From Escherichia coli (GTDB lineage: Bacteria > Pseudomonadota > Gammaproteobacteria > Enterobacterales > Enterobacteriaceae): a stretch of 64,000 nt of DNA. The position numbers were made by a program, and so were the translations under genes. The stretch lies in the NCBI RefSeq assembly GCF_003019035.1, contig NZ_CP027447.1, one strand, 5' to 3'. Under the pieces are notes generated by a model. That model ran no database searches. It saw only the letters and a program-made list of their open reading frames with translations, and was not told where the DNA came from. Of the stretch, positions 3,081-59,963 are shown one piece after another. Every line of letters begins with the position of its first letter. Position 1 is the first letter of the stretch.

Positions 3081-3571
3081 TCATGAGTCTTTTGAATGAC
3101 GTTCAGAAATTCATTGAAGCCCATCCGGGGTGTACTTCCGGAGACATTGCGGATGCTTTTGCAGGTTACTCACGACAGCGCGTTCTGCAGTCAGCAAGCA
3201 AGTTACGTCAGAGTGGGCGTGTGGCTCACCGTTGTGAAGGGGATACACGCAGACATTTCCCGCGGCTGACTGAGATACCGCAGGAGCCGGAACCGCAACC
3301 AGTTCGTGAATCCAGACCTGTGCGCAATTTCTATGTCGGCACTAACGATCCCCGGGTGATTTTGTGCCTGACCCGCCAGGCGGAAGAACTGGAGTCCAGG
3401 GGCTTATACCGTCGTGCTGCAACGGTGTGGATGGCGGCATTCCGTGAAAGCCACTCCCAGCAAGAGCGAAACAATTTTCTTGCGCGTCGTGAGCGGTGTT
3501 TACGGAAAAGCAGCAAGCGCGCTGTATCGGGTGAAGAGTGGTATCTGTCAGGGAATTACGTGGGGGCTTAA
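3077..3571 (+). CDS. PerC-family-like transcriptional regulator (tentative)
   Basis: 164 aa; the YRRAATVWMAAF segment resembles the RRAAxxW core I recall from PerC/Pch proteins; not aligned. Confidence 0.35.
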   Translation: MIMSLLNDVQKFIEAHPGCTSGDIADAFAGYSRQRVLQSASKLRQSGRVAHRCEGDTRRHFPRLTEIPQEPEPQPVRESRPVRNFYVGTNDPRVILCLTRQAEELESRGLYRRAATVWMAAFRESHSQQERNNFLARRERCLRKSSKRAVSGEEWYLSGNYVGA

Positions 3572-3897
3572 TGACGACGTTAACTCAATGCCAGCAGCAG
3601 GTGCTGGATATGCTGATTTCTTATCAGAAAGAGCGTGGCTTTCCGCCAACCAATCAGGAGGTGGCAACCATGCTGGGATACCGTTCGGTGAATGCAGCGG
3701 TGGAGCATCTTCGCGCACTGGAGAAAAAAGGTGTCATCACGATAAAGCGTGGCGTGGCCCGGGGTATCACTCTTCATACCGCGGTGAAGGACGACGACAG
3801 CGAGGCGGTCGGGATTATCCGCTCACTGCTTGCCGGTGAGGAAAACGCAAGGCTGCGTGCAACCCACTGGTTACATGAGAGGGGCCTGAAAGTATGA
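3571..3897 (+). CDS. LexA-N-terminal-type winged-helix DNA-binding protein
   Basis: 108 aa from ATG 3571; pattern similar to the LexA DNA-binding domain without a peptidase domain. Confidence 0.5.
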   Translation: MTTLTQCQQQVLDMLISYQKERGFPPTNQEVATMLGYRSVNAAVEHLRALEKKGVITIKRGVARGITLHTAVKDDDSEAVGIIRSLLAGEENARLRATHWLHERGLKV

Positions 3898-4283
3898 AGC
3901 TGATCCTGCCTTTCCCGCCCAGCGTGAACACGTACTGGCGACACCCCAACAAAGGGGCGTTTGCTGGTAAGAGCCTGATAAGCGCGGCGGGGCGAAAATT
4001 CCAGAGCGCGGCGTGCGCAGCAATAGTTGAGCAGTTACGTCGTCTGCCAAAACCAACGTCGGCACCTGCTTCAGTGGAGATCGTGTTGTTTCCTCCGGAT
4101 AACCGGATCCGCGATCTGGACAACTATAACAAGGCGCTGTTTGACGCCCTGACCCACGCGGGTGTGTGGGAAGACGACAGTCAGGTGAAAAGAATGCTGG
4201 TGGAGTGGGGACCGGTTATCCCGGAAGGGAAGGTCGAGATCACTATCAGTAAGTACGAGAAACCGGCGGGTGCAGCCGCCTGA
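3894..4283 (+). CDS. rusA: Holliday junction resolvase RusA
   Basis: 129 aa; N-terminal PPSVNTYW and central RDLDNYNKALFDAL motifs characteristic of RusA. Confidence 0.85.
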   Translation: MKLILPFPPSVNTYWRHPNKGAFAGKSLISAAGRKFQSAACAAIVEQLRRLPKPTSAPASVEIVLFPPDNRIRDLDNYNKALFDALTHAGVWEDDSQVKRMLVEWGPVIPEGKVEITISKYEKPAGAAA

Positions 4284-11998: not shown

Positions 11999-12493
11999 AT
12001 GGCTGGAACGACGGGGCGTTCCGGGCGTCGCCCCAAGCCAACGGCGCGCAAGGCGCTGGCCGGAAATCCCGGCAAGCGAGCCCTGAACAAAGATGAACCT
12101 GTTTTTACGCCCATCAAAGGTGTTGAGCCACCGGAGTGGTTCGCTGAAGAAGATCTCCCTCTCGCCACGATCATGTGGCAACTGACAACCAAAGAACTCT
12201 GCGGTCAGGGCCTGCTGTGCGTGACTGACCTCGCGGTGCTTGAGCGGTGGTGCGTGGCCTACGAGTTCTGGCGGCGTGCCGTGAAAAATATTGCCAGACA
12301 GGGCAACACCATCACCGGTGCAATGGGTGGCATGGTCAAAAATCCGGAGCTGACCGCCAAGAAAGAACAGGAGTCCGAGATGAGCAGCACGGGGGCAATG
12401 CTCGGACTCGACCCCAGCATCCGCCAGCGTCTGATTGGCCTGGCGGGGCAGAAGAAAGCCACTAACCCGTTTCTGAAAATCATCGAATCATGA
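11999..12493 (+). CDS. Terminase small subunit
   Basis: ~165 aa from ATG 11999 (SD AGGAG); position before the large terminase. Confidence 0.75.
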
Positions 12494-14223
12494 GCCGGAA
12501 ATCTTACCCCAACGTAAATGCTGCCAATCAGTATGCCCGGGATGTCGTGCGCGGAAAGATTGTGGCCTGCCAGTTTGTGATTCAGGCCTGCCAGCGCCAT
12601 CTTGATGACCTGATGGCGGAAAAAAGTAAGTCGTTTCGTTACCGCTTCGACAAGGACCTGGCTGAACGGGCCGCGAAATTTATTCAGCTGTTGCCACACA
12701 CCAAGGGGGAGTGGGCATTCAAGAGGATGCCCATCACGCTGGAACCGTGGCAGCTCTTTGTGATCTGCTGTGCGTTTGGCTGGGTCAATAAAGGCTCCCG
12801 GCTGCGCCGCTTCAGGGAGGTGTATACCGAAATCCCCCGTAAGAACGGCAAATCGGCAATCTCTGCCGGTGTTGCCCTGTATTGTTTTGCCTGTGATAAC
12901 GAGTTTGGCGCGGAAGTGTATTCCGGTGCCACGACAGAGAAACAGGCGTGGGAAGTCTTTCGCCCGGCGCGACTGATGTGTAAACGCACACCCATGCTGA
13001 CGGAAGCGTTCGGGATTGAGGTTAACGCCTCAAACATGAACCGTCCGGAGGATGGCGCGCGGTTTGAACCGCTGATCGGTAACCCCGGTGATGGTTCATC
13101 ACCCCACTGTGCCGTGGTGGATGAATATCACGAGCACGCCACCGATGCGCTTTATACCACGATGCTTACCGGGATGGGCGCGCGACGTCAGCCACTGATG
13201 TGGGCCATTACTACTGCCGGGTACAACATTGAGGGGCCGTGCTACGACAAGCGGCGGGAAGTTATCGAGATGCTCAACGGGTCGGTACCCAACGATGAAC
13301 TGTTCGGGATCATCTATACCGTTGATGAAGGTGACGACTGGACCGACCCGCAGGTGCTGGAAAAAGCCAATCCAAATATTGGCGTGTCGGTTTATCGCGA
13401 ATTTTTGTTAAGTCAGCAGCAGCGTGCGAAAAATAACGCCCGTCTGGCAAACGTCTTTAAAACAAAACACCTCAATATCTGGGTGTCGGCGCGTTCGGCG
13501 TATTTCAACCTGGTGAGCTGGCAGAGCTGCGAGGATAAATCACTGACCCTTGAGCAGTTCGAGGGGCAGCTGTGCATTCTGGCCTTTGACCTGGCGCGTA
13601 AGCTGGATATGAACAGCATGGCGCGACTTTATACCCGCGAGATTGACGGTAAAACGCATTACTACAGTGTGGCCCCGCGTTTCTGGGTACCGTATGACAC
13701 GGTGTACAGCGTCGAGAAAAATGAAGATCGACGGACAGCCGAACGCTTTCAGAAATGGGTGGAAATGGGCGTTCTGACCGTTACCGATGGTGCGGAGGTG
13801 GATTATCGCTATATCCTCGAGGAGGCCAAAGCGGCGAACAAAATCAGCCCGGTCAGTGAGTCACCCATCGACCCCTTCGGGGCGACCGGGTTGTCACATG
13901 ACCTTGCTGATGAAGACCTGAATCCCGTCACTATCATTCAGAACTACACCAACATGTCCGACCCGATGAAAGAGCTGGAAGCGGCAATTGAATCGGGGCG
14001 CTTTCATCATGATGGCAATCCCATCATGACCTGGTGTATCGGCAACGTGGTCGGCAAAACCATTCCGGGTAACGATGATGTGGTGAAGCCCGTCAAAGAG
14101 CAGGCGGAAAACAAAATCGATGGTGCAGTTGCGCTGATTATGGCGGTTGGCAGAGCCATGCTGTACGAGAAAGGAGACACGTTGTCTGACCACATTGAGT
14201 CCTATGGGATCCGCTCGCTTTAA
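12490..14223 (+). CDS. Terminase large subunit
   Basis: 577 aa; ATPase-like N-terminus and nuclease-like C-terminus; ATGA overlap with the small subunit. Confidence 0.9.
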
Positions 14224-29512: not shown

Positions 29513-29953
29513 ATGAATTACATATATTCCGCGACTACAAACTCTTTCTATCCGCTGGAGATGAAAGAGGATTACACTCAAGCTGACTCATGGCCAGATG
29601 ATGCTGTTGAAGTTGATGAGCAAGTGTATATTGCGTTTTCCGGATTACCGCCGAAAGGAAAAATCCGTATCGCTGGAGAAAATGGTTTTCCTGCATGGTC
29701 TGAAATTCCACCGCCAACACATGAGGAACAGATTGCTGCAGCCGAACAGGAAAAGCAGCAACTGATTAATCAGGCCAACGATTATATGAACAGTAAACAA
29801 TGGCCTGGTAAAGCGGCTATTGGTCGTCTGAAAGGTGAGGAACTGGCGCAATATAATTTGTGGCTGGATTATCTGGACGCACTGGAACTGGTCGATACTT
29901 CCGGTGCGCCAGATATTGAATGGCCTACGCCTCCGGCAGTTCAGGCCAGATGA
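29513..29953 (+). CDS. Tail fibre assembly protein (Tfa)
   Basis: 146 aa; C-terminal ELVDTSGAPDIEWPTPP resembles the conserved Tfa C-terminus. Confidence 0.75.
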   Translation: MNYIYSATTNSFYPLEMKEDYTQADSWPDDAVEVDEQVYIAFSGLPPKGKIRIAGENGFPAWSEIPPPTHEEQIAAAEQEKQQLINQANDYMNSKQWPGKAAIGRLKGEELAQYNLWLDYLDALELVDTSGAPDIEWPTPPAVQAR

Positions 29954-30514
29954 CATCCGGCGCGGTGCTGGTATCTGTTGCCGTCACCGCGTCAATGTAA
30001 TCCAGCACGGCGTTTAGTCGGGTGGTTTCTGTTTGCGTCAGCTTCCGTCCGGCCTGCAATTTCAGTTGAATAAGACTAATGGACGCCATTGCAGCATTAA
30101 TCAGCGACTGGCGCTGTGTTTCTGCCGCTTCTACTGCAGCACCGTGCTGTGCCTCAGTATCTGTCACCCATTTTTCCCATCCATTTATCGTATGGCGTTA
30201 ACGGTGAAAGCGTGACATAACCGTCTTTGATGGCACCGATATAATCCACTGTAACGGCAGCGCCATTTTCGGTTGAGTAAACAGTCTCATGGCGATGGTC
30301 TTCTTCATGGTGCCATCCTTCCCGTAAATACTGCCACTTTCCCCGAAATGTTTTCGCCCGGGTCAATATAAGTGGAACAAGCGGGCATACTTACACCAGT
30401 ATTAATATATTCATCAGACCAACCCGTATATTCATACGTTACTGTATCATAATAAAAACAACGCATATCACCCGGTACTGTAGCCAGCCCATTTTCATCA
30501 AAAACAGGTTTCAT
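29925..30514 (-). pseudogene. Alternative tail fibre assembly gene (tfa') in the invertible segment, disrupted by two frameshifts
   Basis: Three overlapping minus-strand frames (30514..30305, 30366..30154, 30167..29925) carry the N-terminal (FDENG), middle (EDHRHETVY...YDKWMG) and C-terminal (TDTSTAPDVIWPELP) parts of a Tfa-like protein. Confidence 0.55.
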
Positions 30515-30722
30515 TATTTAGCCCTCACCAGAAAGTTAAATGCGATGTTACGTGGCCTGACGGCAATAAAATTCACACCATCACCCACTGAATTACTGGT
30601 GTAATGGTATCGAGAGAAACCCGGCTCGTGTGCTGATATTCCATCGTGATTAGCAATCGAATGGCCGGAGCCCTCTGGATAATTACCTCCAAATTGCGAT
30701 AAAGATGTTGCTGCCTGCCAGC

Positions 30723-30958
30723 TTAATAATGCTCGCCACTATCCACCCCGCACCCATCATCCCAGATACGAATGAAATCACCCCGTGCGTCAGGTAATAC
30801 CAGCGACGGAAACACTTTCGCCAGCACAGGGTAATCAGTGGCAGAAAATTTCGCTCCGTTGAACTTCAAAAACACCATACCGGACCAGCTGTTGATTACG
30901 GTATTTGGCATTGCAGCGGAGGGCCAGAAGAACGGAACTCCAATAGCCGGAGCACCTT
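30723..30958 (-). CDS. Alternative tail-fibre variable C-terminal segment (Sv'), possibly truncated
   Basis: Minus-strand frame whose N-terminus crosses the right crossover site with the same LGLGE junction residues as the plus-strand fibre gene; ends ~200 nt before tfa'. Confidence 0.45.
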
Positions 30959-30968
30959 CTCCCAAACC
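30949..30968. repeat. Invertase crossover site, right (inverted copy)
   Basis: CTTCTCCCAAACCAACGTTT, inverted repeat of the left site; ~70 bp upstream of pin. Confidence 0.7.
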
Positions 30969-31036
30969 AACGTTTATGAAAATGCAGAAATAACGAGCAA
31001 ATGGCATCATTCCTGCTTTTGTCAGGGAGATCTACC

Positions 31037-31591
31037 ATGCTTATTGGCTATGTACGTGTGTCAACAAATGACCAGAACACAGATCTACAACGTAATGCGC
31101 TGAACTGTGCAGGATGCGAGCTGATTTTTGAAGACAAGATAAGCGGTACAAAGTCCGAAAGGCCGGGACTGAAAAAACTGCTCAGGACATTATCGGCAGG
31201 TGACACTCTGGTTGTCTGGAAGCTGGATCGGCTAGGGCGTAGTATGCGGCATCTGGTCATTCTGGTTGAGGAGTTGCGCGAACGTGGCGTTAATTTTCGC
31301 AGCCTGACGGATGCTATTGATACCAGCACACCGATGGGGCGTTTTTTCTTTCATGTGATGGGTGCCCTGGCTGAAATGGAACGAGAACTGATTGTTGAAC
31401 GAACAAAAGCTGGACTGGAAGCTGCTCGCGCACAGGGACGAATTGGTGGACGTCGTCCCAAACTTACACCAGAACAATGGGCGCAGGCCGGGCGATTAAT
31501 TGCATCAGGCGTTCCTCGCCAGAAGGTGGCGATCATCTATGATGTTGGTATATCGACACTGTATAAGAAGTTTCCGGTCGGAGATAAATGA
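31037..31591 (+). CDS. pin: Site-specific DNA invertase Pin (serine recombinase, Hin/Gin/Pin family)
   Basis: ~184 aa from MLIGYVRVSTNDQ; near-identical in pattern to e14 Pin (catalytic Ser in YVRVST; C-terminal HTH). Confidence 0.9.
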   Translation: MLIGYVRVSTNDQNTDLQRNALNCAGCELIFEDKISGTKSERPGLKKLLRTLSAGDTLVVWKLDRLGRSMRHLVILVEELRERGVNFRSLTDAIDTSTPMGRFFFHVMGALAEMERELIVERTKAGLEAARAQGRIGGRRPKLTPEQWAQAGRLIASGVPRQKVAIIYDVGISTLYKKFPVGDK

Positions 31592-31629
31592 AACCGTAGC
31601 ACGTCGTATGCAAGATCGTGCTGCGGTTT
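31591..31629. repeat. Hairpin repeat copy A (AAACCGTAGCACG-n13-CGTGCTGCGGTTT)
   Basis: 13-bp inverted repeat with one mismatch, directly after the pin stop; core shared with copies at 32609..32720 and 37170..37270. Confidence 0.6.
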
Positions 31630-31648
31630 ATGCTTATCACTTAAAGAC

Positions 31649-32518
<870 letters not shown>

Positions 32519-32608
32519 CTAATCCTTTGAATTTACATAGTAAAAAAGATACTTTTCCTCATAGTGTGAGCTAATTTTATGTTTCGTTTGATGATCGGAC
32601 CGGTCTCA

Positions 32609-32720
32609 AAAACCGCAGGCACGTTGTATGCAAGAACGTGCTGTGGCTGGCTGGTGAACTTCCAATAGTGCGAATATTGAATGATTTCTATCTGTTATAG
32701 ATTTTACCGTATTTCGGCAT
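32609..32720. repeat. Repeat copy B (~110 bp) of a dispersed element
   Basis: Shares the core CCGCAGGCACGTTGTATGCAAGAACGTGCTG and the downstream GGCTGGTGAACTTCCAATAGTGCGAATATTGAATGATTTC with copy C (~70% identity by eye). Confidence 0.55.
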
Positions 32721-32981
32721 GAATGAAACTGAATATCCTCCCACCGATTCTCCATGACTTTACGCCACTGTCTCTAGGGCTGCTATGTGCCAGAGGCGGA
32801 CGTTGTTAAAATAGAAAATATCCCAACCTTGTATGAGTCGTGCAATAATTTCGAACTTTATACAAAGCTTTGGTTGTAAAGGTGTATAACCACAAGTGAC
32901 ATTAATCACATTTGTAAAGGCAAAATGCAACAAACTGAATTAGTTAATTGCGTAAATTTGAAGTTATGTTAAGGTGGTGAT

Positions 32982-33114
32982 GGTTTATGGGCAGATTTTG
33001 GGTCGCGTTTCGCGATCAGTGAAAAAAATGTCCGATAGGATTGCCTTTCAGGATCTCATGTTCCTCGCATTTCTTAAGGTTCTTGTCAAGTTTGCGTAAG
33101 AGTGCCCATAAACC
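32982..33114 (+). ncRNA. Candidate retron msr/msd non-coding RNA flanked by inverted repeats a1/a2
   Basis: 12-bp perfect inverted repeats GGTTTATGGGCA (32982..32993) and TGCCCATAAACC (33103..33114) bracket 109 nt; a G follows a1; small hairpin TCGCG-TTT-CGCGA at 33003..33015; ends 20 bp before the RT start. Confidence 0.4.
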
Positions 33115-33133
33115 CTTTTAGAGGCGATCTAAA

Positions 33134-34969
33134 GTGAAACGACTACAATCATTAAAAGAAGCAAAAACAAAACCAGACTTGGCTAAGCTATTAGGAATCA
33201 AACCTTCAGCGTTAACATACTGCCTATATGTATTAAAACCTGAAAATCAATACACACAGTTTAAGATACCAAAAAAAAATGGCGGCGAACGGATAATAAG
33301 TGCACCTAACGGAATATTAAAGACGATACAGTCATCCTTATCAAGACTGCTTCTAGATTGCTTAGACGAAATAGTTTGCATTAAGTTTCCAGACTCAGAG
33401 TTAGCAAGGCAGAAAGCAAAAAACTCAAAAATATTAAAGTTAAAATGTTCCAACTCAGAAATCAAACAACCCTCACTGTCTCATGGATTTGAAAGAAAGC
33501 GTTCAATTATTACAAATGCAATGATGCACTTGGGGAAAAAATATGTTTTTAATATAGACTTGGATAATTTTTTCGGCAGTTTTAACTTTGGTAGAGTCCG
33601 AGGTTTTTTCATAAAAAATAGAAACTTTGCACTCGATCCGGAAATCGCAACTGTAATTGCTAAAATTGCGTGCTACAACAATGAACTACCCCAAGGCAGC
33701 CCATGCTCCCCAGTAATCACTAATCTAATCACTCACTCGTTAGACATTAAACTGGCAGCGATTGCATCAAGAAACTCATCCACTTTTACAAGATATGCTG
33801 ATGATATTACATTCTCTACGAGGAAGGGGGAGTTTCCTTCTGCTATAGCAAAAAATCAAAATGGTAAATATATCGTTAGTAAGAAAATTAGGGGCGAGAT
33901 AACTCGCTCAGGTTTTATAATTAATGATGGGAAGACAAGAAATCAGTATAAAGACTCGAGGCAAGATGTAACAGGCTTAGTGGTTAATAAAAAGCCAAAC
34001 ACGAAAAAAGAATATTGGAGGCTTGTGCGTGCGCAATGTGACCATTTATTTAAACATGGTGAGTTCTTAGAGGTGATTGACGGCAAGGAAATAAAGGGGA
34101 ATGTTAATACCCTTGCAGGCAAACTTAACTTCATAGACCAAGTTGACCACTATAATAGATTGCGTCAAGGCGAAAAATTAAATCCAAAATATCACTTAAA
34201 AAAAGATGCCAATAAAAATGGCCATGCCAAAAAAAGGCGTTACTTACATAGTTCTAGAGAAAAAACGTTTAGTGAGTTTCTCTTCTATCGTTTATTTTAT
34301 GGCAATGAATTACCAACAATTCTTACGGAAGGTAAAACTGACAATATTTATCTGAAGGCAGCAATACATAAGTTAGCCTCATCATTCCCTAATTTGGCGG
34401 TCGCTGAAAGTCCAGGGCTCTCTTATAAGCCACGGACTAAATTTGTTAACTACAATGAGCGGACAAAATATTTACTTGAACTTTATGGTGGTGCTGATTA
34501 TTTAAAGGATTTTGTTATTCATTATAAACAACACTTTAATCGTTATAAGGCTCCCAAACCATCTAATCCAGTAATTATACTTGTTGATAATGATAGCGGA
34601 CCAAAAGATCTGATTAATTACGTTAGTAAAGTTGATAATATTGGTATTTTCCCCACAGGTGTTCCAGATATCCGCGCCTCTGAGTTTGTACATATTTTTT
34701 GTAATCTTTATTTAGTGCTTACCCCTCAAGTTAAGGGATATACAGGAACTGATATAGAGCATTTTTTTAAAGATGCAGATCGACTTAGACCACATAAAGG
34801 TAAGTTTTTCAATACAGTCTCTAAGCGTGATCATGATAATGATTTGAGCAAGGAATCTTTCGCAACTCATATTGTTCATGCCCACAAGCATGAAATTGAT
34901 TTTAGTGGATTTACAAGCCTGTTAGAACGGTTAGTAAAAGTCATAAATCACTTTGACACTGTTAAGTAA
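33134..34969 (+). CDS. Retron-type reverse transcriptase fused to a C-terminal Toprim-like domain
   Basis: 611 aa (GTG start). RT motifs: IPKKNGGER, NAMMH (retron NAxxH), FNIDLDNFF (A), LPQGSPCSPVITNL (B), YADD (C), VTGLVVN (retron VTG); core resembles retron Ec86 RT as recalled. C-terminus carries acidic motifs ILTEGKTD and IILVDND. Confidence 0.8.
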   Translation: MKRLQSLKEAKTKPDLAKLLGIKPSALTYCLYVLKPENQYTQFKIPKKNGGERIISAPNGILKTIQSSLSRLLLDCLDEIVCIKFPDSELARQKAKNSKILKLKCSNSEIKQPSLSHGFERKRSIITNAMMHLGKKYVFNIDLDNFFGSFNFGRVRGFFIKNRNFALDPEIATVIAKIACYNNELPQGSPCSPVITNLITHSLDIKLAAIASRNSSTFTRYADDITFSTRKGEFPSAIAKNQNGKYIVSKKIRGEITRSGFIINDGKTRNQYKDSRQDVTGLVVNKKPNTKKEYWRLVRAQCDHLFKHGEFLEVIDGKEIKGNVNTLAGKLNFIDQVDHYNRLRQGEKLNPKYHLKKDANKNGHAKKRRYLHSSREKTFSEFLFYRLFYGNELPTILTEGKTDNIYLKAAIHKLASSFPNLAVAESPGLSYKPRTKFVNYNERTKYLLELYGGADYLKDFVIHYKQHFNRYKAPKPSNPVIILVDNDSGPKDLINYVSKVDNIGIFPTGVPDIRASEFVHIFCNLYLVLTPQVKGYTGTDIEHFFKDADRLRPHKGKFFNTVSKRDHDNDLSKESFATHIVHAHKHEIDFSGFTSLLERLVKVINHFDTVK

Positions 34970-35298
34970 TATTATGATGCGCACTGATTATTCCTTATTC
35001 AGCTAAAATTTCTACTGTAGTCCCAACTTCCGTTCCTCGCTCATAACAGACATTCACTACAGTTATGGTAGAAGGTATGCATGCTGGGTGGGGAAAGTAT
35101 GAAGGAAAAGAAGACTGCTGCGCCGTTTGTTGTCACATTTATCTTCATTGGCTATGCAAGTCGTAATACAAGGTGGGACAAAACTGAGACACATAAGGCC
35201 TCGCAATGACTTGCAAGGCTTTACATGTTTTGATGTGGTGGGACGTGTGAGCGCAGTGTTGATGGGGTAATGCTTTGAATTAGAAGCGGATTCTTATA

Positions 35299-35343
35299 AT
35301 TCGTAATGCGAAGGTCGTAGGTTCGACTCCTATTATCGGCACC
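35299..35343 (+). other. Partial tRNA-Thr 3' end (thrW-like pseudo-tRNA), prophage attR core
   Basis: ATTCGTAATGCGAAGGTCGTAGGTTCGACTCCTATTATCGGCACCA matches the anticodon-stem-to-CCA portion of E. coli tRNA-Thr(CGU) as recalled; no matching 5' acceptor strand upstream. Confidence 0.75.
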
Positions 35344-35941
35344 ATTTAAATCAATAAGTTATCTCACATTTAAGTAAACTACGTTCTCCTCTTGTGCCTT
35401 TGATTTTGCTCGCGTGCGCGGTGAAATGCCTGACTGAAAGGTGAGCATATCGACGAACCATTTCGAGAGTTTCCCATCTGCTCATTTTTAAGTGCAAGCA
35501 GGAAAACACCGGACTAAACCAATCAGCTGTTCGAAAATGGCAAGCGGATTAATATGCCATGGCGGGGCAGCTTTGAGCCGCACGCATGGGGTGTGGCAAG
35601 CCTGATGGATTTTGCTGTGCCTGTGGTGGCGTGTTTGCTGGTTTGGCTGTTGGTTAAACGCGAAAGTCATAATGCCAGGGGAATACCGCAGGGTGTTCAG
35701 GTTTTGCATAAAAAAGCCCACCATTAAGGTGGGCAAAAGGAATGATTTATATTCTCTGAGAGAAACATTACATTTCTCCTTGTCACTTCTAACATAAAAA
35801 TATGGAGAAATAATGGAGCTTATATTAATTGGCGATTAGGTAACCATGTGGTTATACAAAACAATACAGTTCTTTACATTTGCCTTGTTTTATGAATACT
35901 CCTGAAGAGGTGTACAACATAATTAAACAAACAGGGTAAAT

Positions 35942-36556
35942 ATGAATATATTTGAACAAACTCCACCGAACCGCAGACGTTATGGTCTTGCTGCATTCAT
36001 TGGGCTGATTGCTGGCGTTGTTTCCGCATTTGTGAAGTGGGGGGCTGAAGTTCCATTGCCGCCACGTAGCCCGGTGGATATGTTTAATGCAGCGTGTGGT
36101 CCGGAATCATTAATCAGGGCTGCTGGGCAAATTGATTGCTCCCGTAATTTTCTCAATCCTCCGTATATTTTTCTTCGAGACTGGCTGGGGCTGACAGATC
36201 CCAATGCGGCTGTTTATACCTTTGCCGGGCATGTCTTTAACTGGGTTGGTGTTACGCACATTATCTTTTCGATAGTGTTTGCTGTCGGTTATTGTGTGGT
36301 CGCTGAAGTATTTCCAAAAATTAAACTCTGGCAGGGCTTACTGGCAGGTGCTTTAGCCCAACTTTTTGTTCATATGATTTCATTCCCTCTCATGGGACTG
36401 ACGCCACCTCTGTTTGATCTCCCGTGGTATGAGAATGTTTCTGAAATTTTTGGACATTTAGTCTGGTTCTGGTCCATTGAAATTATTCGCAGAGATTTAC
36501 GAAACAGAATTACTCATGAGCCAGACCCTGAGATCCCTTTAGGCTCAAACAGATAA
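35942..36556 (+). CDS. yagU: Inner membrane protein YagU (DUF1440)
   Basis: 204 aa, multi-helix membrane protein; recognised as the E. coli YagU sequence. Confidence 0.85.
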
Positions 36557-36805
36557 TGCATTGAATGATAAAAATGGCGCAAATACAGCGCCATTTTTAT
36601 AGGTTAAAAACATTGTTTTTAACTTTCTGATGGCAGATAGCCAGTGAGTACATCGCGCTACTTCAGGATGCTGTAGATCCGGAGAACACTATAGAGGAAG
36701 AGGCATTGTTGCTGGCAGATGGAAGAAGTTTCGGGTTTTGTTATCCCTGAAAAACGAAGCCCCGCGATTATAGCTGGCGGGGCAGTGCAATTAATTATTG
36801 CATAT

Positions 36806-37135
36806 TTATAACGGTGTCAGCCCGTATTTAGCTCTTGCACGATTGCAAGCCTCATTGACGACTCCGTTCTCACCAGACATGGCGAATTCTCTGCACGTGG
36901 AAGATCGATTTTTATATATCGTGCAGCAGGCATTTTTGCCCGGTGTTCCTGCAAGGGCAATACATCGGGGGTTTTTCTGATTGGTACCGCTCATGCATCG
37001 GTGAAAAGGGGATATTTGTTCAGTGAGCCTGGCGGGAATGGTACCGCCAGCATCGTCGGCTTCGGCCCAGTAAAAAGAGACGCGGAAAAATGCACAACAG
37101 GCACCACACGTCATGCATGGATTCAGATTGCTCAT
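36806..37135 (-). CDS. ykgJ: Cys-rich ferredoxin-like protein YkgJ
   Basis: 109 aa with CxxCxxCC and further Cys clusters; conserved neighbour of yagU and the ecp operon. Confidence 0.8.
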
Positions 37136-37447: not shown

Positions 37448-38158
37448 TTAGTCCGCCGAAGGGGGCTTAGCAGGACAGGAATCGCTAATCTTAATGAATT
37501 TGTCGTTATAGACCAGATAATGATTCCCCGGCTGACGTAACTCAGGCTGATGAACCACGTCTCCCGGACGTAGATACCAGGCGTCGCCTTCCTCTTCGGT
37601 CGAATCACATCCTGGTTTAATCAGTAGCTTAAACCACGTGTTGCCGGTGTTACTTACCGTTCCTGTCACCTGGTCGAAGGACCATTTAAACTGAACCTGA
37701 CGTGGTCGTACTACCAGAATGGTATCCATCACCACCACCGGCTCCGTGCTGACCTCACCGCCGGTTGGGCTGCGTTTTGTCAGGTTACGAGTGGGGACCT
37801 CGCGAAATGAGACCCGGTAGTAGCGCTCGCGGTTATCCCGTGGACCATGATAGTAAAATTTAAAATACTCGCTCTCACCAGCCTGCAACGCCAGCTGGCG
37901 GGGGGCGAAAAGCAGTTCACCATCCACCGGTCGGGTGCGCAATTCACTGCTGCCCGGGCTATCAATAGCACTGATGGCAATACGGTATATCCGTGCGCTT
38001 TTGTTGTTATTCACTACACGTTTGCTGACAAAGTCAGTCTCGGACGGCAGCGAAAATGTCAGATTGCCGACCGAAATCGCCTGTGTCAAAGGTGCCGACA
38101 GCATACAGACCGCTGTCAGCAGGGCCTTAGTTAATGTTACGCCACGTCGCCTGAACAT
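37448..38158 (-). CDS. ecpE: E. coli common pilus chaperone EcpE
   Basis: ~236 aa from MFRRRGV; signal peptide; last gene of the ecp operon. Confidence 0.85.
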
Positions 38159-39770
38159 GAATTTCTCCTGAAGCGCTGACTTCGCCAAACCAGCCGTTAT
38201 CATCTACCGTACGCAGCGAAATGGCGTTATCCATTGGAATCGAAAATTTGACTGTGGTCTTATCCATCTGCCCCACTTCGCCAGAGATATCAGTCCACGG
38301 TGTAGTCAGCCACAGCGCATCGGTCATATCCCGCCAGCTATCATCGCACCCGGCATCGTAGGTTTTTGTAGCTCCGTTGCGGGTAATAAAGGAAAGCGTC
38401 GCCGGGAACGGTACTTTCGCCTTACCGTCATCGGAGCTGAGGACACAATAGGAGCGTCCGCCAATCACCTGCGCGGGTCCGGTCACCTTGATCAGCACTT
38501 CGTCGGCAGCTGTTTTACCGCTGGTGGTTACGATATAGCCGAAATCGAGTGCCGACTCGCCGCTGCCAACATATCCCTCCCGCGACGGTGTCTGAGTATA
38601 TTCATCGGAGATAATACTGATGCTGAAATCACGGGGTTTGATAATCAGCGTGTTGGAGGTAGAAAATTCATACCAGCCAGACTCCGGTGATGTGGTGTTC
38701 TGAAAGCGAAAGTTGAACAGATCTTTGGTGTTGATATCGCTGATCCCAAGGTTCACCATTTGCTTAAAGAAGTTGCTCGAGAAGAAAACATAGATCGAGT
38801 CTGCGCTCTTCATCTCGTTGAAGGTGTAGTAATAGGCGGTATTGCTCACCGGTTTCCATGAACTGCCATTCAGACTGAACTGCATATCGTACGCCCCGAC
38901 GGCCGAGGCTAACGACGAGTTGGCGATCGCCGGGAAGATATGGATTGAGGTGTTGCTGAGCCCGTTTGTTTGCAGGGTATAGTTAACCATCTTACAACTT
39001 AATCCTGAACGGCTGCCGATGGTTTGCGTCCGGCAGTCGGCGTTCCCTTCGCCCAGAGTCGGAACTCCGTCGCTGTTGATAAATACTTCCGCCAGCGAGT
39101 GGGTATTTATCAACCGCAGATTTGCTGCTTTCGTATGGGTGACGTTGCGAACATACCAGTTGCCGGAGGCCTGATCCTTACAGCGTGCGCCGCTGCTGGC
39201 ATCATAGTTCACAGAGGTCTGGCAGGCATTGATGGTCATTGTAAAGCTGCTGCCGACGGGCATTTGTTGCAGATACTGGTAAAACGCGTCTGACAACATG
39301 CCGTGCATCCACTTCGCGCCGCCGCTGGTCACCGTCGCGCCATAAAATCCACTGGCGTCGGTGGTTTGCGGCAGGATAAGACTGGTGGTCATATTACACC
39401 CAGCGTACCAGTTGATGCAGCGCAAGCCAGTTAAAGGAGATGAAACTGGTGAATTTTCCAGCCACATATCAAACTTCCAGTTGGTATAAAGGCCGGTGTT
39501 GTAACCGTTATCAATGTAGCCGAGGCTTTGCTGATAGATGGTTCCTGAACCATTGTATTTTAAACCGGTCCAGCGGTTGGCACCGGTCAGGCGCGGATCC
39601 AGCGCCCCGCCAGGAGTGACGAAAAAGTTGTCGTCTGAGTTGTTTTCGACAAACACAAACTCGCGTGCCGGAGCATCCGCCCAGGTTGTTTTGCTCACTG
39701 CCGCTCTGAGCGCGGTTGCAGGCCAGATTAGCGCAAAGATTATCATCGCTATCAGTAGGTTAACTCTCAT
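38127..39770 (-). CDS. ecpD: E. coli common pilus tip adhesin EcpD
   Basis: 547 aa with signal peptide; operon position. Confidence 0.9.
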
Positions 39771-53614: not shown

Positions 53615-56600
53615 ATGTCACGTTATAAAACAGGTCATAAACAACCACGATTTCGTTATTCAGTTCTGGCCCGCTGCGTGGCGTGGGCAAATATCTCTGT
53701 TCAGGTTCTTTTTCCACTCGCAGTCACTTTTACCCCAGTAATGGCGGCACGTGCGCAGCATGCGGTTCAGCCACGGTTGAGCATGGGAAATACTACGGTA
53801 ACTGCTGATAATAACGTGGAGAAAAATGTCGCGTCGTTTGCCGCAAATGCCGGGACATTTTTAAGCAGTCAGCCAGATAGCGATGCGACACGTAACTTTA
53901 TTACCGGAATGGCCACCGCTAAAGCTAACCAGGAAATACAGGAGTGGCTCGGGAAATACGGTACTGCGCGCGTCAAACTGAATGTCGATAAAAATTTCTC
54001 GCTGAAGGACTCTTCGCTGGAAATGCTTTATCCGATTTATGATACACCGACAAATATGTTGTTCACTCAGGGGGCAATACATCGTACCGACGATCGTACT
54101 CAGTCAAATATTGGTTTTGGCTGGCGCCATTTTTCAGAAAATGACTGGATGGCGGGGGTGAATACTTTTATCGATCATGATTTATCCCGTAGTCATACCC
54201 GCATTGGTGTTGGTGCGGAATACTGGCGTGATTATTTGAAACTGAGCGCCAATGGTTATATCCGGGCTTCTGGCTGGAAAAAATCGCCGGATGTTGAGGA
54301 TTATCAGGAACGCCCGGCGAATGGCTGGGATATTCGTGCTGAGGGCTATTTACCTGCCTGGCCGCAGCTTGGCGCAAGCCTGATGTATGAACAGTATTAT
54401 GGCGATGAAGTCGGGCTGTTTGGTAAAGATAAACGCCAGAAAGATCCACATGCGATTACCGCTGAAGTGAATTACACGCCAGTGCCTCTTCTGACCCTGA
54501 GTGCCGGGCATAAGCAGGGCAAGAGTGGTGAGAATGACACTCGCTTTGGCCTGGAAGTTAATTATCGTATTGGCGAACCCCTGGAAAAACAACTCGATAC
54601 AGACAGCATTCGCGAGCGTCGAATGCTGGCAGGCAGCCGCTATGACCTGGTTGAGCGTAATAACAATATCGTTCTTGAGTATCGCAAATCTGAAGTGATC
54701 CGTATTGCTCTGCCTGAGCGTATTGAAGGCAAGGGCGGCCAGACGGTTTCCCTGGGGCTTGTGGTCAGCAAAGCAACTCACGGTCTGAAAAATGTGCAAT
54801 GGGAAGCGCCGTCTTTGCTGGCCGCAGGCGGAAAAATTACGGGGCAGGGCAATCAGTGGCAAGTGACGCTCCCGGCTTATCAGGCAGGCAAAGACAATTA
54901 TTATGCGATTTCAGCGATTGCCTACGATAACAAAGGCAATGCCTCGAAACGTGTGCAGACAGAAGTGGTTATTAGCGGAGCTGGTATGAGCGCCGATCGT
55001 ACGGCGTTAACGCTTGACGGTCAGAGCCGTATTCAAATGCTTGCTAACGGTAATGAGCAAAAGCCGCTGGTGCTGTCTCTGCGCGACGCCGAGGGCCAGC
55101 CAGTCACGGGCATGAAAGATCAGATCAAGACTGAACTAACCTTCAAACCGGCTGGAAATATTGTGACTCGTACCCTGAAGGCCACTAAATCACAGGCAAA
55201 GCCAACACTGGGTGAGTTCACCGAAACTGAAGCAGGGGTGTATCAGTCTGTCTTTACTACCGGAACGCAGTCAGGTGAGGCAACGATTACTGTTAGCATT
55301 GATGGCATGAGCAAAACCGTCACTGCAGAATTGCGCGCCACGATGATGGATGTGTCGAAGTCTACCCTGAGCGTGAATGAACTCTCAGGAGACGTGGTTG
55401 CTGATGGTCAGCAATCCCACACGCTGACGCTTACTGCGGTGGATACTGATGGTAACCCGGTGACGGGAGAAGCCAGCCGCCTGCGACTTGTTCCGCAAGA
55501 CACTAATGGTGTAACCGTTGGTGCCATTTCGGAAATAAAACCAGGGGTTTACAGCGCCACGGTTTCTTCGACCCGTGCCGGAAACGTTGTTGTGCGTGCC
55601 TTCAGCGAGCAGTATCAGCTGGGCACATTACAACAAACGCTGAAGTTTGTTGCCGGGCCGCTTGATGCAGCACATTCGTCCATCACACTGAATCCTGATA
55701 AACCGGTGGTTGGCGGTACAGTTACGGCAATCTGGACGGCAAAAGATGCTAATGACAACCCTGTAACCAGCCTCACGCCGGAAGCGCCGTCATTAGCGGG
55801 TGCTGCGGCTGTAGGTTCTACGGCATCTGGCTGGACAAATAATGGTGATGGAACATGGACTGCGCAGATTACTCTCGGCTCTACGGCGGGTGAATTAGAC
55901 GTTATGCCGAAGCTAAATGGACAGGATGCGGCAGCAAATGCGGCAAAAGTAACCGTGGTGGCTGATGCATTATCTTCAAACCAGTCGAAAGTCTCTGTCG
56001 CAGAAGATCACGTAAAAGCCGGTGAAAGCACAACCGTGACGCTTATTGCAAAAGATGCGCATGGCAACGCTATCAGTGGCCTTTCCCTGTCGGCAAGCCT
56101 GACGGGTGCTGCGTCTGAAGGGGCGACGGTATCCAACTGGACCGAGCAGGGCGATGGTTCCTATGTCGCTACGCTGACCACAGGGGGAAAGACGGGTGAG
56201 CTTCTCGTTATGCCGCTATTCAACGGTCAGCCAGCAGCCACCGAAGCCGCGCAGCTGACTGTTATTGCCGGAGAGATGTCATCAGCGAACTCTACGCTTG
56301 TTGCGGACAATAAGGCTCCGACCGTCAAAGCGACGACGGAACTTACCTTCACCGCGAAGGATGCGTATGGGAACCCTGTTAGTGGCCTGAAGCTCGATGC
56401 ACCAGTGTTTAGCGGTGCCGCCAGCACGGGATCAGAGCGACCTTCAGCAGGAAGCTGGACAGAGCAAAGTAATGGGGTCTACGTGGCGACCTTAACGCTG
56501 GGATCGGCTGCAGGCCAGCTATCAGTCATGCCGCGCGTGAACGGCCAAAATGCCGTTGCTCAACCACTGGTGCTGAATGTTGCAGGTGACGCTTCCCGGG

Positions 56601-57868
56601 CAGTGATCAGTGATATGGCGGTGAAGGTGAATAACCAACTGGCAAATGGACAGTCTGCTAACCAGGTAACCCTGACCGTCGTGGACAGCTATGGTAACCC
56701 GTTGCAGGGGCAAGAAGTTACGCTGACTTTACCGCAGGGTGTGACCAGCAAGACGGGGAATACAGTAACAACCAATGCGGCAGGTAAAGCGGATATTGAG
56801 TTGATATCAACCGTTGCAGGGGAACTTGAAATCGCGGCCGCGGTGAAAAACTCTAAGAAGACGGTCACGGTGAAATTCAACGCGGATGCCAGCACCGGTC
56901 AGGCAAACCTGCAGGTAGACACCGCCGTTCAAAAAGTGGCAAACGGCAAAGATGCCTTTACGCTGACGGCGACCGTTGAGGATAAAAACGGTAACCCTGT
57001 TCCAGGAACTCTGGTGACCTTTAATCTGCCTCGGGGTGTCAAGCCGCTTACAGGCGATAATGTCTGGGTGAAAGCCAACGATGAGGGGAAAGCAGAGTTG
57101 CAGGTGGTTTCAGTGACTGCCGGAACGTATGAGATCACGGCATCGGCAGGGAATAGCCAGCCTTCGAATACGCAGACTATAACGTTTGTAGCCGATAAGG
57201 CTACCGCAACCGTCTCCGGTATTGAGGTGATTGGCAACTATGCACTGGCGGACGGCAAAGCCAAACAAACGTATAAAGTTACGGTGACTGATGCCAATAA
57301 GAATTTGGTGAAAGATAGCGAAGTGACGCTGACCGCCAGCCCGGCTTCGTTAAACCTGGAACCGAATGGCACTGCGACAACGAATGAGCAAGGGCAGGCT
57401 ATTTTCACCGCCACGACCACTGTCGCAGCGACATATACACTCACAGCGAAAGTGGAACAGGCCAACGGTCAGGAATCGACGAAAACTGCTGAATCTAAAT
57501 TCGTCGCGGATGATAAAAACGCGGTGCTCGCCGCATCATCTGATGTGACTTCTCTGGTGGCGGATGGGGTACAGACCGCAACAATGACGGTTACCCTGTT
57601 CTCGGCAAATAACCCTGTTGGGGGGAATGTGTGGGTCGACATTGAGGCTCCGGAAGGGGTGACAGAGGCGGATTATCAGTTCCTGCCGTCGAAGGCCGAC
57701 CATTTCGCGAGCGGGAAAATCACGCGTACATTTAGTACCAACAAGCCAGGTACATACACATTCACATTCAACTCTTTGACATATGGAGGGTATGAAATGA
57801 AACCAGTGACTGTGACCATTACCGCGGTGGATGCCAATACGGCAACGGGCGAGGAGGCGATGAAATAA
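53615..57868 (+). CDS. eaeH: Intimin/invasin-like adhesin with tandem bacterial Ig-like domains (EaeH/FdeC, full length)
   Basis: 1417 aa; N-terminal beta-barrel-like region then many ~90-aa Thr/Val/Ala-rich repeats; locus position matches eaeH. Confidence 0.8.
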   Translation: MSRYKTGHKQPRFRYSVLARCVAWANISVQVLFPLAVTFTPVMAARAQHAVQPRLSMGNTTVTADNNVEKNVASFAANAGTFLSSQPDSDATRNFITGMATAKANQEIQEWLGKYGTARVKLNVDKNFSLKDSSLEMLYPIYDTPTNMLFTQGAIHRTDDRTQSNIGFGWRHFSENDWMAGVNTFIDHDLSRSHTRIGVGAEYWRDYLKLSANGYIRASGWKKSPDVEDYQERPANGWDIRAEGYLPAWPQLGASLMYEQYYGDEVGLFGKDKRQKDPHAITAEVNYTPVPLLTLSAGHKQGKSGENDTRFGLEVNYRIGEPLEKQLDTDSIRERRMLAGSRYDLVERNNNIVLEYRKSEVIRIALPERIEGKGGQTVSLGLVVSKATHGLKNVQWEAPSLLAAGGKITGQGNQWQVTLPAYQAGKDNYYAISAIAYDNKGNASKRVQTEVVISGAGMSADRTALTLDGQSRIQMLANGNEQKPLVLSLRDAEGQPVTGMKDQIKTELTFKPAGNIVTRTLKATKSQAKPTLGEFTETEAGVYQSVFTTGTQSGEATITVSIDGMSKTVTAELRATMMDVSKSTLSVNELSGDVVADGQQSHTLTLTAVDTDGNPVTGEASRLRLVPQDTNGVTVGAISEIKPGVYSATVSSTRAGNVVVRAFSEQYQLGTLQQTLKFVAGPLDAAHSSITLNPDKPVVGGTVTAIWTAKDANDNPVTSLTPEAPSLAGAAAVGSTASGWTNNGDGTWTAQITLGSTAGELDVMPKLNGQDAAANAAKVTVVADALSSNQSKVSVAEDHVKAGESTTVTLIAKDAHGNAISGLSLSASLTGAASEGATVSNWTEQGDGSYVATLTTGGKTGELLVMPLFNGQPAATEAAQLTVIAGEMSSANSTLVADNKAPTVKATTELTFTAKDAYGNPVSGLKLDAPVFSGAASTGSERPSAGSWTEQSNGVYVATLTLGSAAGQLSVMPRVNGQNAVAQPLVLNVAGDASRAVISDMAVKVNNQLANGQSANQVTLTVVDSYGNPLQGQEVTLTLPQGVTSKTGNTVTTNAAGKADIELISTVAGELEIAAAVKNSKKTVTVKFNADASTGQANLQVDTAVQKVANGKDAFTLTATVEDKNGNPVPGTLVTFNLPRGVKPLTGDNVWVKANDEGKAELQVVSVTAGTYEITASAGNSQPSNTQTITFVADKATATVSGIEVIGNYALADGKAKQTYKVTVTDANKNLVKDSEVTLTASPASLNLEPNGTATTNEQGQAIFTATTTVAATYTLTAKVEQANGQESTKTAESKFVADDKNAVLAASSDVTSLVADGVQTATMTVTLFSANNPVGGNVWVDIEAPEGVTEADYQFLPSKADHFASGKITRTFSTNKPGTYTFTFNSLTYGGYEMKPVTVTITAVDANTATGEEAMK

Positions 57869-57988
57869 TATTAAGAGTATGAAAGTAACATTCTAATAAA
57901 CAATAATGGCGTTGACATCTTCAACGCCATTATTTATTGAATTGCCTGACAGTAGTCTCGTTATAAATTCATTTAGATATAGCGATAA

Positions 57989-58879
57989 CTAAACCGGACG
58001 AACAGGGATAAATATTTCGCAAACAACATCATTGCTATCCTTTTCTACGAAATCTTCATTGTAATAAAATCGCTCAATATCACTGCCGTTCATTCTGGCT
58101 AACCTCCTGGCGGGTAATTCCATCAGATAGAGGTTTCGCGCCCATTCAGGGTAGTGCTCCCACTCACCTTCATAGCGGAAAGAGGCATACAGTCCTCGGT
58201 TAATTGTCCACTCTTTCGACATCTCTGAATCGGTTTGTTTGCATACCGTACCGGCAAAAGTTTCAACTGTGAGCAAATCGACCGATTTTGTTGACGGTTC
58301 GAACGTGGAGACGAAATAGATATCCGTCTTAAAATTCTTCATACATCTGGCTAAATGATGACGTCGCAGTTTGACTTCTTCATCCGGTGATTTATTCGAC
58401 ACTTCAATATCATATTTAAATGAATTGCCAAAAATAGGTGTCTCAGGAAAGTTGACTAATCTACACTCCGTCTTTTGCTGTTGACGTATTAAAAAAGAAG
58501 GGAAGATATTTGCGAGATCCCAATAATCACGGTGGCGGTATTCACGGGGAGAGCAGCCGAATAACTTTTTAAATTCGCGGCTGAATGATTGCTGTGAATC
58601 AAAATGCAAAGAGAGTGCAATATCAAGCATAGATTTCGCGGAGAGCCGGACAAGAATGGCGGCACGACAAAGCCTTCGTTTGCGAATGTATTCTCCCAAA
58701 GGCACATGCATGAAATTTCGGAAAAGAAGCTGGATGTTGCGTCTGCTGTAGCCAGATTTCTGTGCGATATCTTCGATTGAAATAGGGTGCTCAAGATTGC
58801 ACTCAATCCACTCCAGGAGCTGCTGTAGAATCTTCTGCCTGATCATCACATTCTCCGTTAATTCTTTGTCATATCGCAC
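57989..58879 (-). CDS. AraC-family transcriptional regulator with ligand-binding C-terminal domain
   Basis: 296 aa (start uncertain); AraC HTH in the N-terminal half (IEDIAQKSGYSRRNIQLLF ... FKKLFGCSPREYR). Confidence 0.7.
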   Translation of the reverse strand: MRYDKELTENVMIRQKILQQLLEWIECNLEHPISIEDIAQKSGYSRRNIQLLFRNFMHVPLGEYIRKRRLCRAAILVRLSAKSMLDIALSLHFDSQQSFSREFKKLFGCSPREYRHRDYWDLANIFPSFLIRQQQKTECRLVNFPETPIFGNSFKYDIEVSNKSPDEEVKLRRHHLARCMKNFKTDIYFVSTFEPSTKSVDLLTVETFAGTVCKQTDSEMSKEWTINRGLYASFRYEGEWEHYPEWARNLYLMELPARRLARMNGSDIERFYYNEDFVEKDSNDVVCEIFIPVRPV

Positions 58880-59078: not shown

Positions 59079-59963
59079 ATGGAGGGACTGACAGTGGAAT
59101 TTTCCGTATTAAGTAACAATCTGAAAATGCCGATGATGGGATTTGGTGTTTTTCAGGTTACCGATAAAGACGTGTGCAAACAGTCAGTGTTGAATGCTAT
59201 CCGCACGGGTTATCGACTCATCGACACTGCAGCGGTATACGGTAATGAAGATGCCGTCGGTGAAGCCGTTCGTGAAGCCATATCTGAAGGTTTATGTACC
59301 CGAGATGAGTTATTTATAACGTCTAAATTGTGGGTGCAGGATATGTTGAATCAGGATACGGCAAAAGCAGGTATTGAAGCGTCATTAAAAAAATCGGGAC
59401 TAGAATACTTCGACCTCTATTTATTGCACCAGGCTATGCGCGATTATTTCAGTGCGTGGCGTGCACTCGAAGATACCTATGAAGAGGGGAAATTAAAAGC
59501 AATTGGGGTTTCCAATTTCTATCCTCATGTTCTGGCGAACTTTTGTGAAACGGTAAGAGTTAAACCGATGGTCAACCAGGTCGAGTTGCATCCCTATTTT
59601 GCCCAACCAGAGGCGCTGGCTACCATGAAGTATTATAGCGTGCAGCCTGAAGCATGGGCTCCGTTAGGTGGTGGACGACATAAACCCTTTGAAAATAATC
59701 TGCTTCAGAGTATTGCAGATGCCCATCAAAAATCGATTTCTCAAGTCATTCTGCGTTGGAATATTCAACGGGGAGTAGTCGTTATTCCGAAATCGACACA
59801 TCAACAGCGTATCGAAGAAAATTTTGCTATCTGGGATTTCTCACTGACAGAGAAAGAAATGGCACAAATTAGCTCGCTTGATTTGGGTTATGTTGGCGAA
59901 TCGGTAAAACATTTTAATCCTGAGTTTGTTCGTGGTTGTCTTGCTGTAAAAATACATGGTTGA
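59079..59963 (+). CDS. Aldo-keto reductase
   Basis: 294 aa; MPMMGFGVFQV...[14 protein letters not shown]...LFITSKLW pattern. Confidence 0.75.
   Translation: MEGLTVEFSVLSNNLKMPMMGFGVFQVTDKDVCKQSVLNAIRTGYRLIDTAAVYGNEDAVGEAVREAISEGLCTRDELFITSKLWVQDMLNQDTAKAGIEASLKKSGLEYFDLYLLHQAMRDYFSAWRALEDTYEEGKLKAIGVSNFYPHVLANFCETVRVKPMVNQVELHPYFAQPEALATMKYYSVQPEAWAPLGGGRHKPFENNLLQSIADAHQKSISQVILRWNIQRGVVVIPKSTHQQRIEENFAIWDFSLTEKEMAQISSLDLGYVGESVKHFNPEFVRGCLAVKIHG

Follow-up and report, generated by a model that had tools for sequence, protein, structure and literature searches.

FdeC, also called EaeH, has been characterised since 2012 with respect to its structure, binding, biogenesis and regulation and in vaccine studies. 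In recombinant form, FdeC attaches to epithelial cells and to collagens I, III, V and VI with a Kd of ~1e-8 M, and host-cell contact triggers its expression (PMC3324786). Epithelial and collagen binding, biofilm formation and colonisation have been shown for the proteins of strains IHE3034 and 536 and of enterohaemorrhagic Escherichia coli (EHEC) (PMC3324786, PMC4943183). For FdeC of CFT073, assembly dependent upon TAM (translocation and assembly module) and surface exposure were demonstrated by pulse labelling and proteinase K treatment (PMC4943183), and EaeH of enterotoxigenic E. coli is contact-activated and implicated in toxin delivery (PMC4309559). The related adhesins intimin (Eae) and Yersinia invasin have the type Ve topology as well; their 12-stranded barrels are homologous to that of FdeC, and their passengers are built of Big domains and begin with a D00-like one. 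Here we describe the fdeC gene carried by a 64,000-nt stretch of the E. coli contig NZ_CP027447.1 (assembly GCF_003019035.1), referred to below as the window.

Identity and architecture of the FdeC orthologue

The initial annotation had read positions 53615 to 57868 as an intact, full-length EaeH/FdeC adhesin of 1417 amino acids (aa). This segment almost certainly encodes an intact FdeC (EaeH) orthologue; FdeC is the prototype of the FdeC-type inverse autotransporters (type Ve secretion), and the assignment rests on amino acid identity, synteny and a match to a structure in the Protein Data Bank (PDB). In the open reading frame (ORF) listing of the window, a single long plus-strand ORF that starts with ATG and comprises 1417 codons plus a stop covers 53615-57868, and no internal stop codons were found in its translation. 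A Shine-Dalgarno sequence (AGGA, 53601-53604) lies 10 nt 5' of the ATG. The RefSeq fdeC gene of E. coli SCU-301 (WP_096986500.1), whose product is named 'inverse autotransporter adhesin FdeC', is 100% identical in DNA sequence to the window gene and has the same start and stop, in agreement with the ORF boundaries. The main features of the gene are as follows.

53615-57868, plus strand: fdeC/eaeH coding sequence, intact; 100% DNA identity to SCU-301 and 92.6% aa identity to IHE3034 FdeC
53615-53755, plus strand: putative Sec signal peptide (aa 1-47), read by eye as a basic N-region, a hydrophobic core and A-R-A before Q48
53840-54685, plus strand: inverse-autotransporter beta-barrel (aa 76-350, PF11924) and linker to aa 357
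54686-55018, plus strand: first passenger domain, intimin-D00-like and immunoglobulin (Ig)-like (aa 358-468), matching 6TQD
55019-57865, plus strand: nine tandem Ig-like (Invasin_D3/Big_1) domains and a 12-aa tail

The protein aligned collinearly over its full length with FdeC of IHE3034 (92.6% aa identity), SMS-3-5 (96.4%) and O157:H7 (93.2%), as well as with three further alleles, and gaps relative to the reference proteins were confined to position 1311, with an indel of 1 aa, and to the C-terminus, where 2 aa differed. FdeC orthologues have been defined by >75% aa identity over at least 80% of the length (Goh et al. 2019, PMC6714894); identity to the three references was 92.6-96.4% over the full length. 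IHE3034 FdeC (ECOK1_0290; PMC3324786; 4E9L) is encoded at the same locus, with the same neighbours and the same domain plan, and has 1416 rather than 1417 aa, the window protein differing from it by one 1-aa indel and a C-terminus 2 aa longer. The proteins of SMS-3-5 (EcSMS35_0331; PMC6714894) and O157:H7, each 1417 aa by RefSeq boundaries, show no indels and differ from the window protein in allelic changes only; the 1415 aa given for SMS-3-5 FdeC (PMC6714894) correspond to an older start annotation. These alignments revealed neither a frameshift nor a stop in comparison with functional FdeC, the outcome that would have refuted the initial annotation, and as far as the sequence goes nothing speaks against the fdeC identity.

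The domain order is inverted, with an N-terminal barrel that ends at aa ~357, followed by the D00-like domain and nine Ig domains up to the C-terminus. The candidate signal peptide, as judged by eye, contains basic residues (R3, K5, K9, R12, R14 and R20), is hydrophobic from aa 21 to 44 and has A-R-A at 45-47, and aa 1-75 are 94.7-100% identical to alleles experimentally shown to be surface-displayed. The Pfam model PF11924 (IAT_beta) matched aa 76-350 with an E-value of 6e-110 (367 bits against a cut-off of 22.3). Among PDB sequences, aa 113-357 matched the invasin barrel 4E1T (E 4.6e-85), and the barrel region also matched the intimin barrel 4E1S (E 9e-73). Barrel and linker together (aa 76-357) are 100% identical in amino acid sequence to those of IHE3034 FdeC. 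In the first passenger domain, aa 358-466 matched the structure of the intimin D00 juncture (6TQD, E 6.5e-12); no Pfam match was found in aa 358-468, and iteration of self-profiles found no sequence relation between this domain and the later repeats.

Iterated self-profiles resolved the remainder, from aa ~470 to ~1405, into 8-9 units of ~100 aa, the count depending on the seed, and we place nine Ig units at about aa 469-588, 589-692, 693-795, 796-896, 897-1001, 1002-1102, 1103-1205, 1206-1309 and 1310-1405. A Pfam scan of the whole protein gave nine Invasin_D3 and six Big_1 stretches, and every repeat segment matched Invasin_D3 or Big_1 when scanned separately; the last domain (aa 1310-1405) is also Ig-like and not a C-type lectin. 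The N-terminal barrel and long Ig array proposed from the sequence at the outset are thus borne out by the domain scan. Together, the D00-like domain and the nine repeats give 10 Big domains, the number published for FdeC (Heinz et al. 2016, PMC4943183). In addition, aa 595-1008 matched 4E9L_A, the crystallised fragment B of FdeC, with an E-value of 1.6e-239 in the search of PDB sequences. Neither the 1417-aa protein nor its separately scanned segments gave a Pfam match to a LysM domain or a C-type lectin cap. In this the window FdeC is unlike intimin and invasin, whose passengers also have 4-5 Ig domains compared with 10 here. Both LysM and the C-type lectin cap are present in YeeJ, IatC and IatD but not in FdeC (PMC6714894), so their lack sets FdeC apart from YeeJ, IatC, IatD, intimin and invasin.

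That K-12 eaeH is truncated, as the initial annotation had stated, is correct. The MG1655 annotation gives eaeH (b0297) as a pseudogene of 888 bp adjoining IS3A; ~292 codons are left, and the frame departs from FdeC after '...YTPVPL', at codon ~293, within the barrel. A BLAST comparison of the MG1655 locus with the window showed that K-12 retains 53064-54490, that is, the whole upstream region and the first 876 nt of fdeC, at about 96.6% identity. Missing from K-12 are 54491-58241, which holds the other 3.4 kb of fdeC together with the 3' part of ykgA, with IS3A in their place; 46760-53063, a 6.3-kb block of six oxidoreductase, hydrolase and LysR genes; and 59110-59834, most of an aldo/keto reductase gene of which K-12 has the remnant ykgQ. 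Insertion of IS3A at codon ~293 and deletion of the remainder account for the loss of fdeC in K-12, whose copy has been described as a pseudogene (PMC3324786).

In E. coli, fdeC is normally intact, and K-12 departs from this rule. A match to fdeC was present in 5077 of 5426 complete E. coli genomes, and 4585 (about 85%) carried at least 80% of it in one piece; published prevalences are 67-83%. The fdeC of the window is therefore a known gene of wide distribution, intact as it usually is, and its initial identification, while correct, is ordinary. Since the truncation in K-12 is textbook annotation, the finding has hardly any weight as a discovery. The presence of the complete fdeC cluster with an intact allele in the source strain is relevant only to studies of colonisation by that strain or to surveys of FdeC antigen diversity for vaccines.

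Function, expression and the upstream leader

Pairwise dN/dS (the ratio of nonsynonymous to synonymous substitution rates) against four alleles was 0.13-0.22 over the whole gene, and fdeC is therefore under purifying selection. By region, the N-terminus and barrel (aa 1-357) had a dN/dS of 0.05-0.10 and the four distal Ig domains one of 0.27-0.37, and judged from these values purifying selection relaxes towards the tip of the rod. Because the ORF and its ribosome binding site are intact, dN/dS is low and the upstream region is conserved, it is reasonable to propose that the source strain probably retains a functional adhesin, a function we infer from orthology.

By analogy with the orthologues, for which the export scheme is established, the signal peptide would take FdeC through Sec, the 12-stranded beta-barrel (aa ~76-350) would be inserted in the outer membrane with the help of the beta-barrel assembly machinery (BAM) and TAM, and the C-terminal passenger would be threaded out through the barrel as a hairpin and fold into a rod of ten Ig domains. 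As on orthologues, this rod would promote biofilm formation and attach to epithelial cells and to collagens I, III, V and VI. The gene would be silent in the laboratory through repression of its AT-rich upstream region by H-NS, to which the literature attributes this silence, and would be induced at 39 °C or above, at alkaline pH or on host-cell contact, as reported for orthologues. Easton et al. in 2014 reportedly studied FdeC of O157:H7 and the regulation of fdeC by H-NS and temperature. Where PMC11143625 cites Easton 2014, it gives FdeC as expressed only at at least 39-42 °C and alkaline pH in EHEC and avian pathogenic E. coli (APEC).

Several caveats apply to the assignment and to the adhesin function. 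An FdeC-specific model was not among the NCBIfam models listed, so that orthology is assigned from identity, synteny and the PDB match rather than from a curated hidden Markov model, and the best NCBIfam matches, all below their cut-offs, were N-terminal models of other inverse autotransporters. The protein has 105 aa differences from IHE3034 FdeC, which are concentrated in the distal domains, identity over aa 1009-1417 being 83.8%. Published FdeC alleles differ in adhesion strength, and deletion of fdeC from APEC IMT5155 raised motility and in-vitro adhesion (PMC11143625), from which it follows that the role of FdeC is not simple. The last of these observations, made at 42 °C, also favours the view that this strain carries an intact gene which is in effect cryptic, being silenced (the literature names H-NS) and contributing little adhesion or, if expressed, acting mainly on motility or biofilm. 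We regard this as unlikely but credible. It fits the AT-rich upstream region, the lack of a consensus promoter in our search upstream of fdeC, the predicted sequestration of the Shine-Dalgarno sequence at all temperatures considered, and the origin of the 100% identical SCU-301 allele, a rectal swab of a healthy student. Purifying selection over the whole gene and the presence of near-full-length fdeC DNA in 4585 of 5426 genomes suggest, on the other hand, that the gene is used in nature, and cell contact switches on the expression of orthologues, which contribute to colonisation.

Expression of fdeC directs attention to the region 5' of the gene, in which two features stand out.

53050-53614, plus strand: AT-rich intergenic and regulatory region of 565 bp between a divergent aldo/keto reductase gene and fdeC
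53504-53606, plus strand: predicted structured leader with hairpins 1-3 and an anti-Shine-Dalgarno helix

The GC content is 0.374 at 53000-53499, in this spacer, compared with 0.47-0.57 (about 0.52) in fdeC. The upstream region is single-copy and at least 95% identical in ~5035 genomes; in an alignment of seven strains including K-12 its mean column identity was 97%, and the last ~110 nt 5' of the ATG were invariant in all seven. A scan of the plus strand upstream of fdeC for the sigma-70 consensus found no convincing promoter, with counts at the level of shuffled sequence. A perfect TATAAT at 53420-53425, which is kept among diverged flanks in the 87% identical E69 sequence described below, might serve as a -10 box, giving a 5' untranslated region of ~185 nt.

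The predicted leader fold consists of hairpin 1 (53504-53525), hairpin 2 (53526-53542), which is followed by a U5 run and looks like an intrinsic terminator, and an inner hairpin 3 (53554-53577). In the minimum free energy (MFE), centroid and consensus folds, UUUUCUGA (53543-53550) is predicted to pair with UCAGGAAA (53599-53606), covering the Shine-Dalgarno sequence. Folding of 53480-53640 gave an MFE of -45.6 kcal/mol (z = -4.2), and none of 200 shuffled sequences was as stable (0/200). The leader had no match in Rfam.

RNA thermometers of the fourU type, such as that of Salmonella agsA, offer a comparison, and the idea that the fdeC leader is a thermometer was tested because FdeC is reported to be heat-induced. 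Like fourU thermometers, the leader has a U-run for which pairing with the Shine-Dalgarno AGGA is predicted in silico, and production of FdeC has been reported at 39 °C and above only. Unlike them, the leader is predicted to open gradually and shows no useful covariation, and the Shine-Dalgarno sequence was equally occluded in 25 of 200 shuffled leaders (12.5%). The predicted probability that AGGA is unpaired stayed low at every temperature: it was 0.05-0.09 at 25 °C and reached 0.14-0.25 at 45 °C across four assumed 5' ends, and a rise between 30 °C and 42 °C from 0.06 to 0.12 likewise gave no sharp opening. No report of an RNA thermometer linked to fdeC or eaeH was found in the literature searched.

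Additional leaders came from a scan of species-representative genomes for exact matches to a DNA pattern encoding the motif W-L-G-K-Y-G-T-A, which returned three Escherichia loci and 12 chance matches in unrelated phyla. The leaders added were those of E. whittamii, Escherichia sp. E1V33 and a divergent 'E. coli', E69; E. albertii and E. fergusonii were not matched, which does not imply absence of the gene since the exact pattern may miss them. In the resulting alignment of nine leaders the consensus fold had the same stems, with a covariation term of +0.23. The anti-Shine-Dalgarno helix was invariant in all nine and hence uninformative on covariation. Compensatory changes affected two pairs, both outside this helix, with one change from G-C to A-U in hairpin 3, and the 5'-most stem was broken in E69. 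The E69 locus (CP089930.1, 7066-8878) carries an fdeC homologue that is 87% identical in DNA sequence to that of the window; its upstream sequence is fully diverged beyond about -230, and the TATAAT and the leader's final ~75 nt are kept. E69 may represent a divergent Escherichia lineage.

The leader thus combines strong sequence conservation with a predicted structure that is as yet unproven. That it exerts post-transcriptional control, as a fourU-like thermometer or an attenuator acting alongside H-NS towards expression at 39 °C or above, appears improbable. The leader is also the sole item here that could lead to new biology.

Allele history and less likely readings of the ORF

Within the collection of complete genomes, only SCU-301 carries the window allele at 99% identity or more. 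Nucleotides 1-2181 of the gene are identical to the allele of E7-1N7, and nucleotides 2286-4254 (1969 nt) are those of the WP2-W18-ESBL-08 allele with one single-nucleotide difference. These two parents differ at 145 sites: the window allele agrees with E7-1N7 at each of the first 48 and with WP2-W18 at 96 of the 97 that follow (Fisher p = 1.7e-31 and 3e-12), and the junction falls in codons 718-728, within Ig domain 3 of the repeat array:

55766-55795, plus strand: intragenic recombination breakpoint (gene nt 2152-2181, codons 718-728)

By this pattern the window allele is a simple homologous recombinant of two circulating alleles, and the mosaic illustrates how new FdeC variants originate, which bears on antigen diversity. 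In a 2024 survey, 630 FdeC protein variants were found among 3069 non-pathogenic genomes (PMC11143625), and rare variants are therefore expected.

A chimera whose junction lies inside an Ig domain, and which is found at 99% identity or more in just one complete genome of the collection, might be intact in appearance only, with incompatible halves or inactivating missense changes that cause the protein to misfold. We consider this very improbable. Each of the two parents is itself a full-length fdeC gene without damage that shares 97.7-98.8% identity with the window allele, and they are nearly identical to each other around the junction; passengers made of Ig repeats are modular, and hundreds of natural FdeC variants exist.

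The weakest alternative, that the ORF encodes intimin, invasin, YeeJ, IatC or SinH instead of FdeC, draws on the top NCBIfam matches (the IatC, Ilp, YrIlm and intimin models) and on a barrel family common to all of these proteins, and is refuted, with a negligible chance of being right, by sub-cut-off scores, the match to 4E9L, synteny with IHE3034 and the full-length alignment at 92-96% identity to FdeC at the fdeC locus. The intimin, IatC, Ilp, SinH and YchO models scored far below their curated cut-offs and covered mainly the shared barrel and juncture; for example, intimin_all reached 381 bits against a cut-off of 1400, with its best stretch at aa 58-478, and IatC reached 633 bits against 2400. 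Of the marks of an intimin, the match to a full-length model, the LysM domain and the Tir-binding C-type lectin domain are all missing, and the absence of LysM and lectin cap likewise speaks against YeeJ and IatC.

Genes around fdeC and the left part of the window

The neighbourhood of the FdeC orthologue has the gene order of IHE3034, from which FdeC was first defined, and an 'fdeC cluster' was described at the same locus by Nesta et al. 2012 (PMC3324786); the chromosomal position of fdeC is conserved (PMC6714894). The flanking features are the following.

46760-53063: reductase/LysR block of 6.3 kb, encoding an NADH-flavin oxidoreductase, an alpha/beta hydrolase, two LysR regulators and two aldo/keto reductases
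57902-57934: palindromic hairpin of 14 bp between the convergent fdeC and ykgA-like genes
57989-58846, minus strand: convergent AraC-family/GyrI-like regulator, a ykgA homologue (Pfam HTH_18, HTH_AraC and GyrI-like; RefSeq)

The reductase/LysR block is also present in IHE3034. Beyond it, the order continues with fdeC, the convergent AraC/GyrI-like regulator, an aldo/keto reductase gene, rclCBA and rclR. The ykgA homologue, a member of the conserved fdeC cluster, is intact in the window and truncated in K-12, and the hairpin that precedes it is a probable bidirectional terminator.

A complete ecpRABCDE operon for the E. coli common pilus lies 9 kb upstream of fdeC (37448-44241, minus strand), so that two conserved adhesin systems are close together. 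Between yagU and ykgJ, the Rfam family IS009 (RF02111) matched 36562-36763 on the plus strand with 191.7 bits against a gathering threshold of 117, marking a candidate small RNA. Two pseudogenes are annotated by RefSeq in the identical DNA of SCU-301: a frameshifted ykgL-like ORF (45116-45290, plus strand) and a frameshifted integrase fragment beside the thrW repeat (35359-35513, minus strand), which is probably the relic of an earlier island.

That the whole window equals SCU-301 was rejected, as direct comparison confined the identity to 35299-63868; the source strain is therefore another isolate with the fdeC region of SCU-301 in common, and the SCU-301 features beyond thrW (the type VI secretion system, Rhs, lafU and prfH-rtcB) are not in the window. 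Positions 35299-35344 are the 3' 46 nt of the tRNA-Thr gene thrW, a repeat of the att type; ARAGORN found no tRNA genes in the window, and thrW of SCU-301 would correspond to ~35269-35344. To the left of this boundary (1-35298) the window is prophage, recognisable from a terminase-sized ORF (12490-14223), portal and tail ORFs and tail-fibre genes, and SCU-301 has no prophage at that site. None of the complete E. coli genomes in the collection contained the junction 29000-37000 in one piece. The prophage leaves the fdeC finding unaffected. Its att-proximal end holds a cluster of defence genes (31001-34966) that includes a Pin/resolvase-type invertase (31001-31588, plus strand). A search for the msr/msd RNA of the retron in this cluster did not locate it, with nothing in Rfam at the gathering threshold. 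The retron itself is of type I-C, with an RT-Toprim protein of the Ec67 family (33134-34966, plus strand; PADLOC E 4.8e-222), and it is accompanied by a PD-T4-3 GIY-YIG defence gene (31649-32470, minus strand; PADLOC E 2.8e-140).

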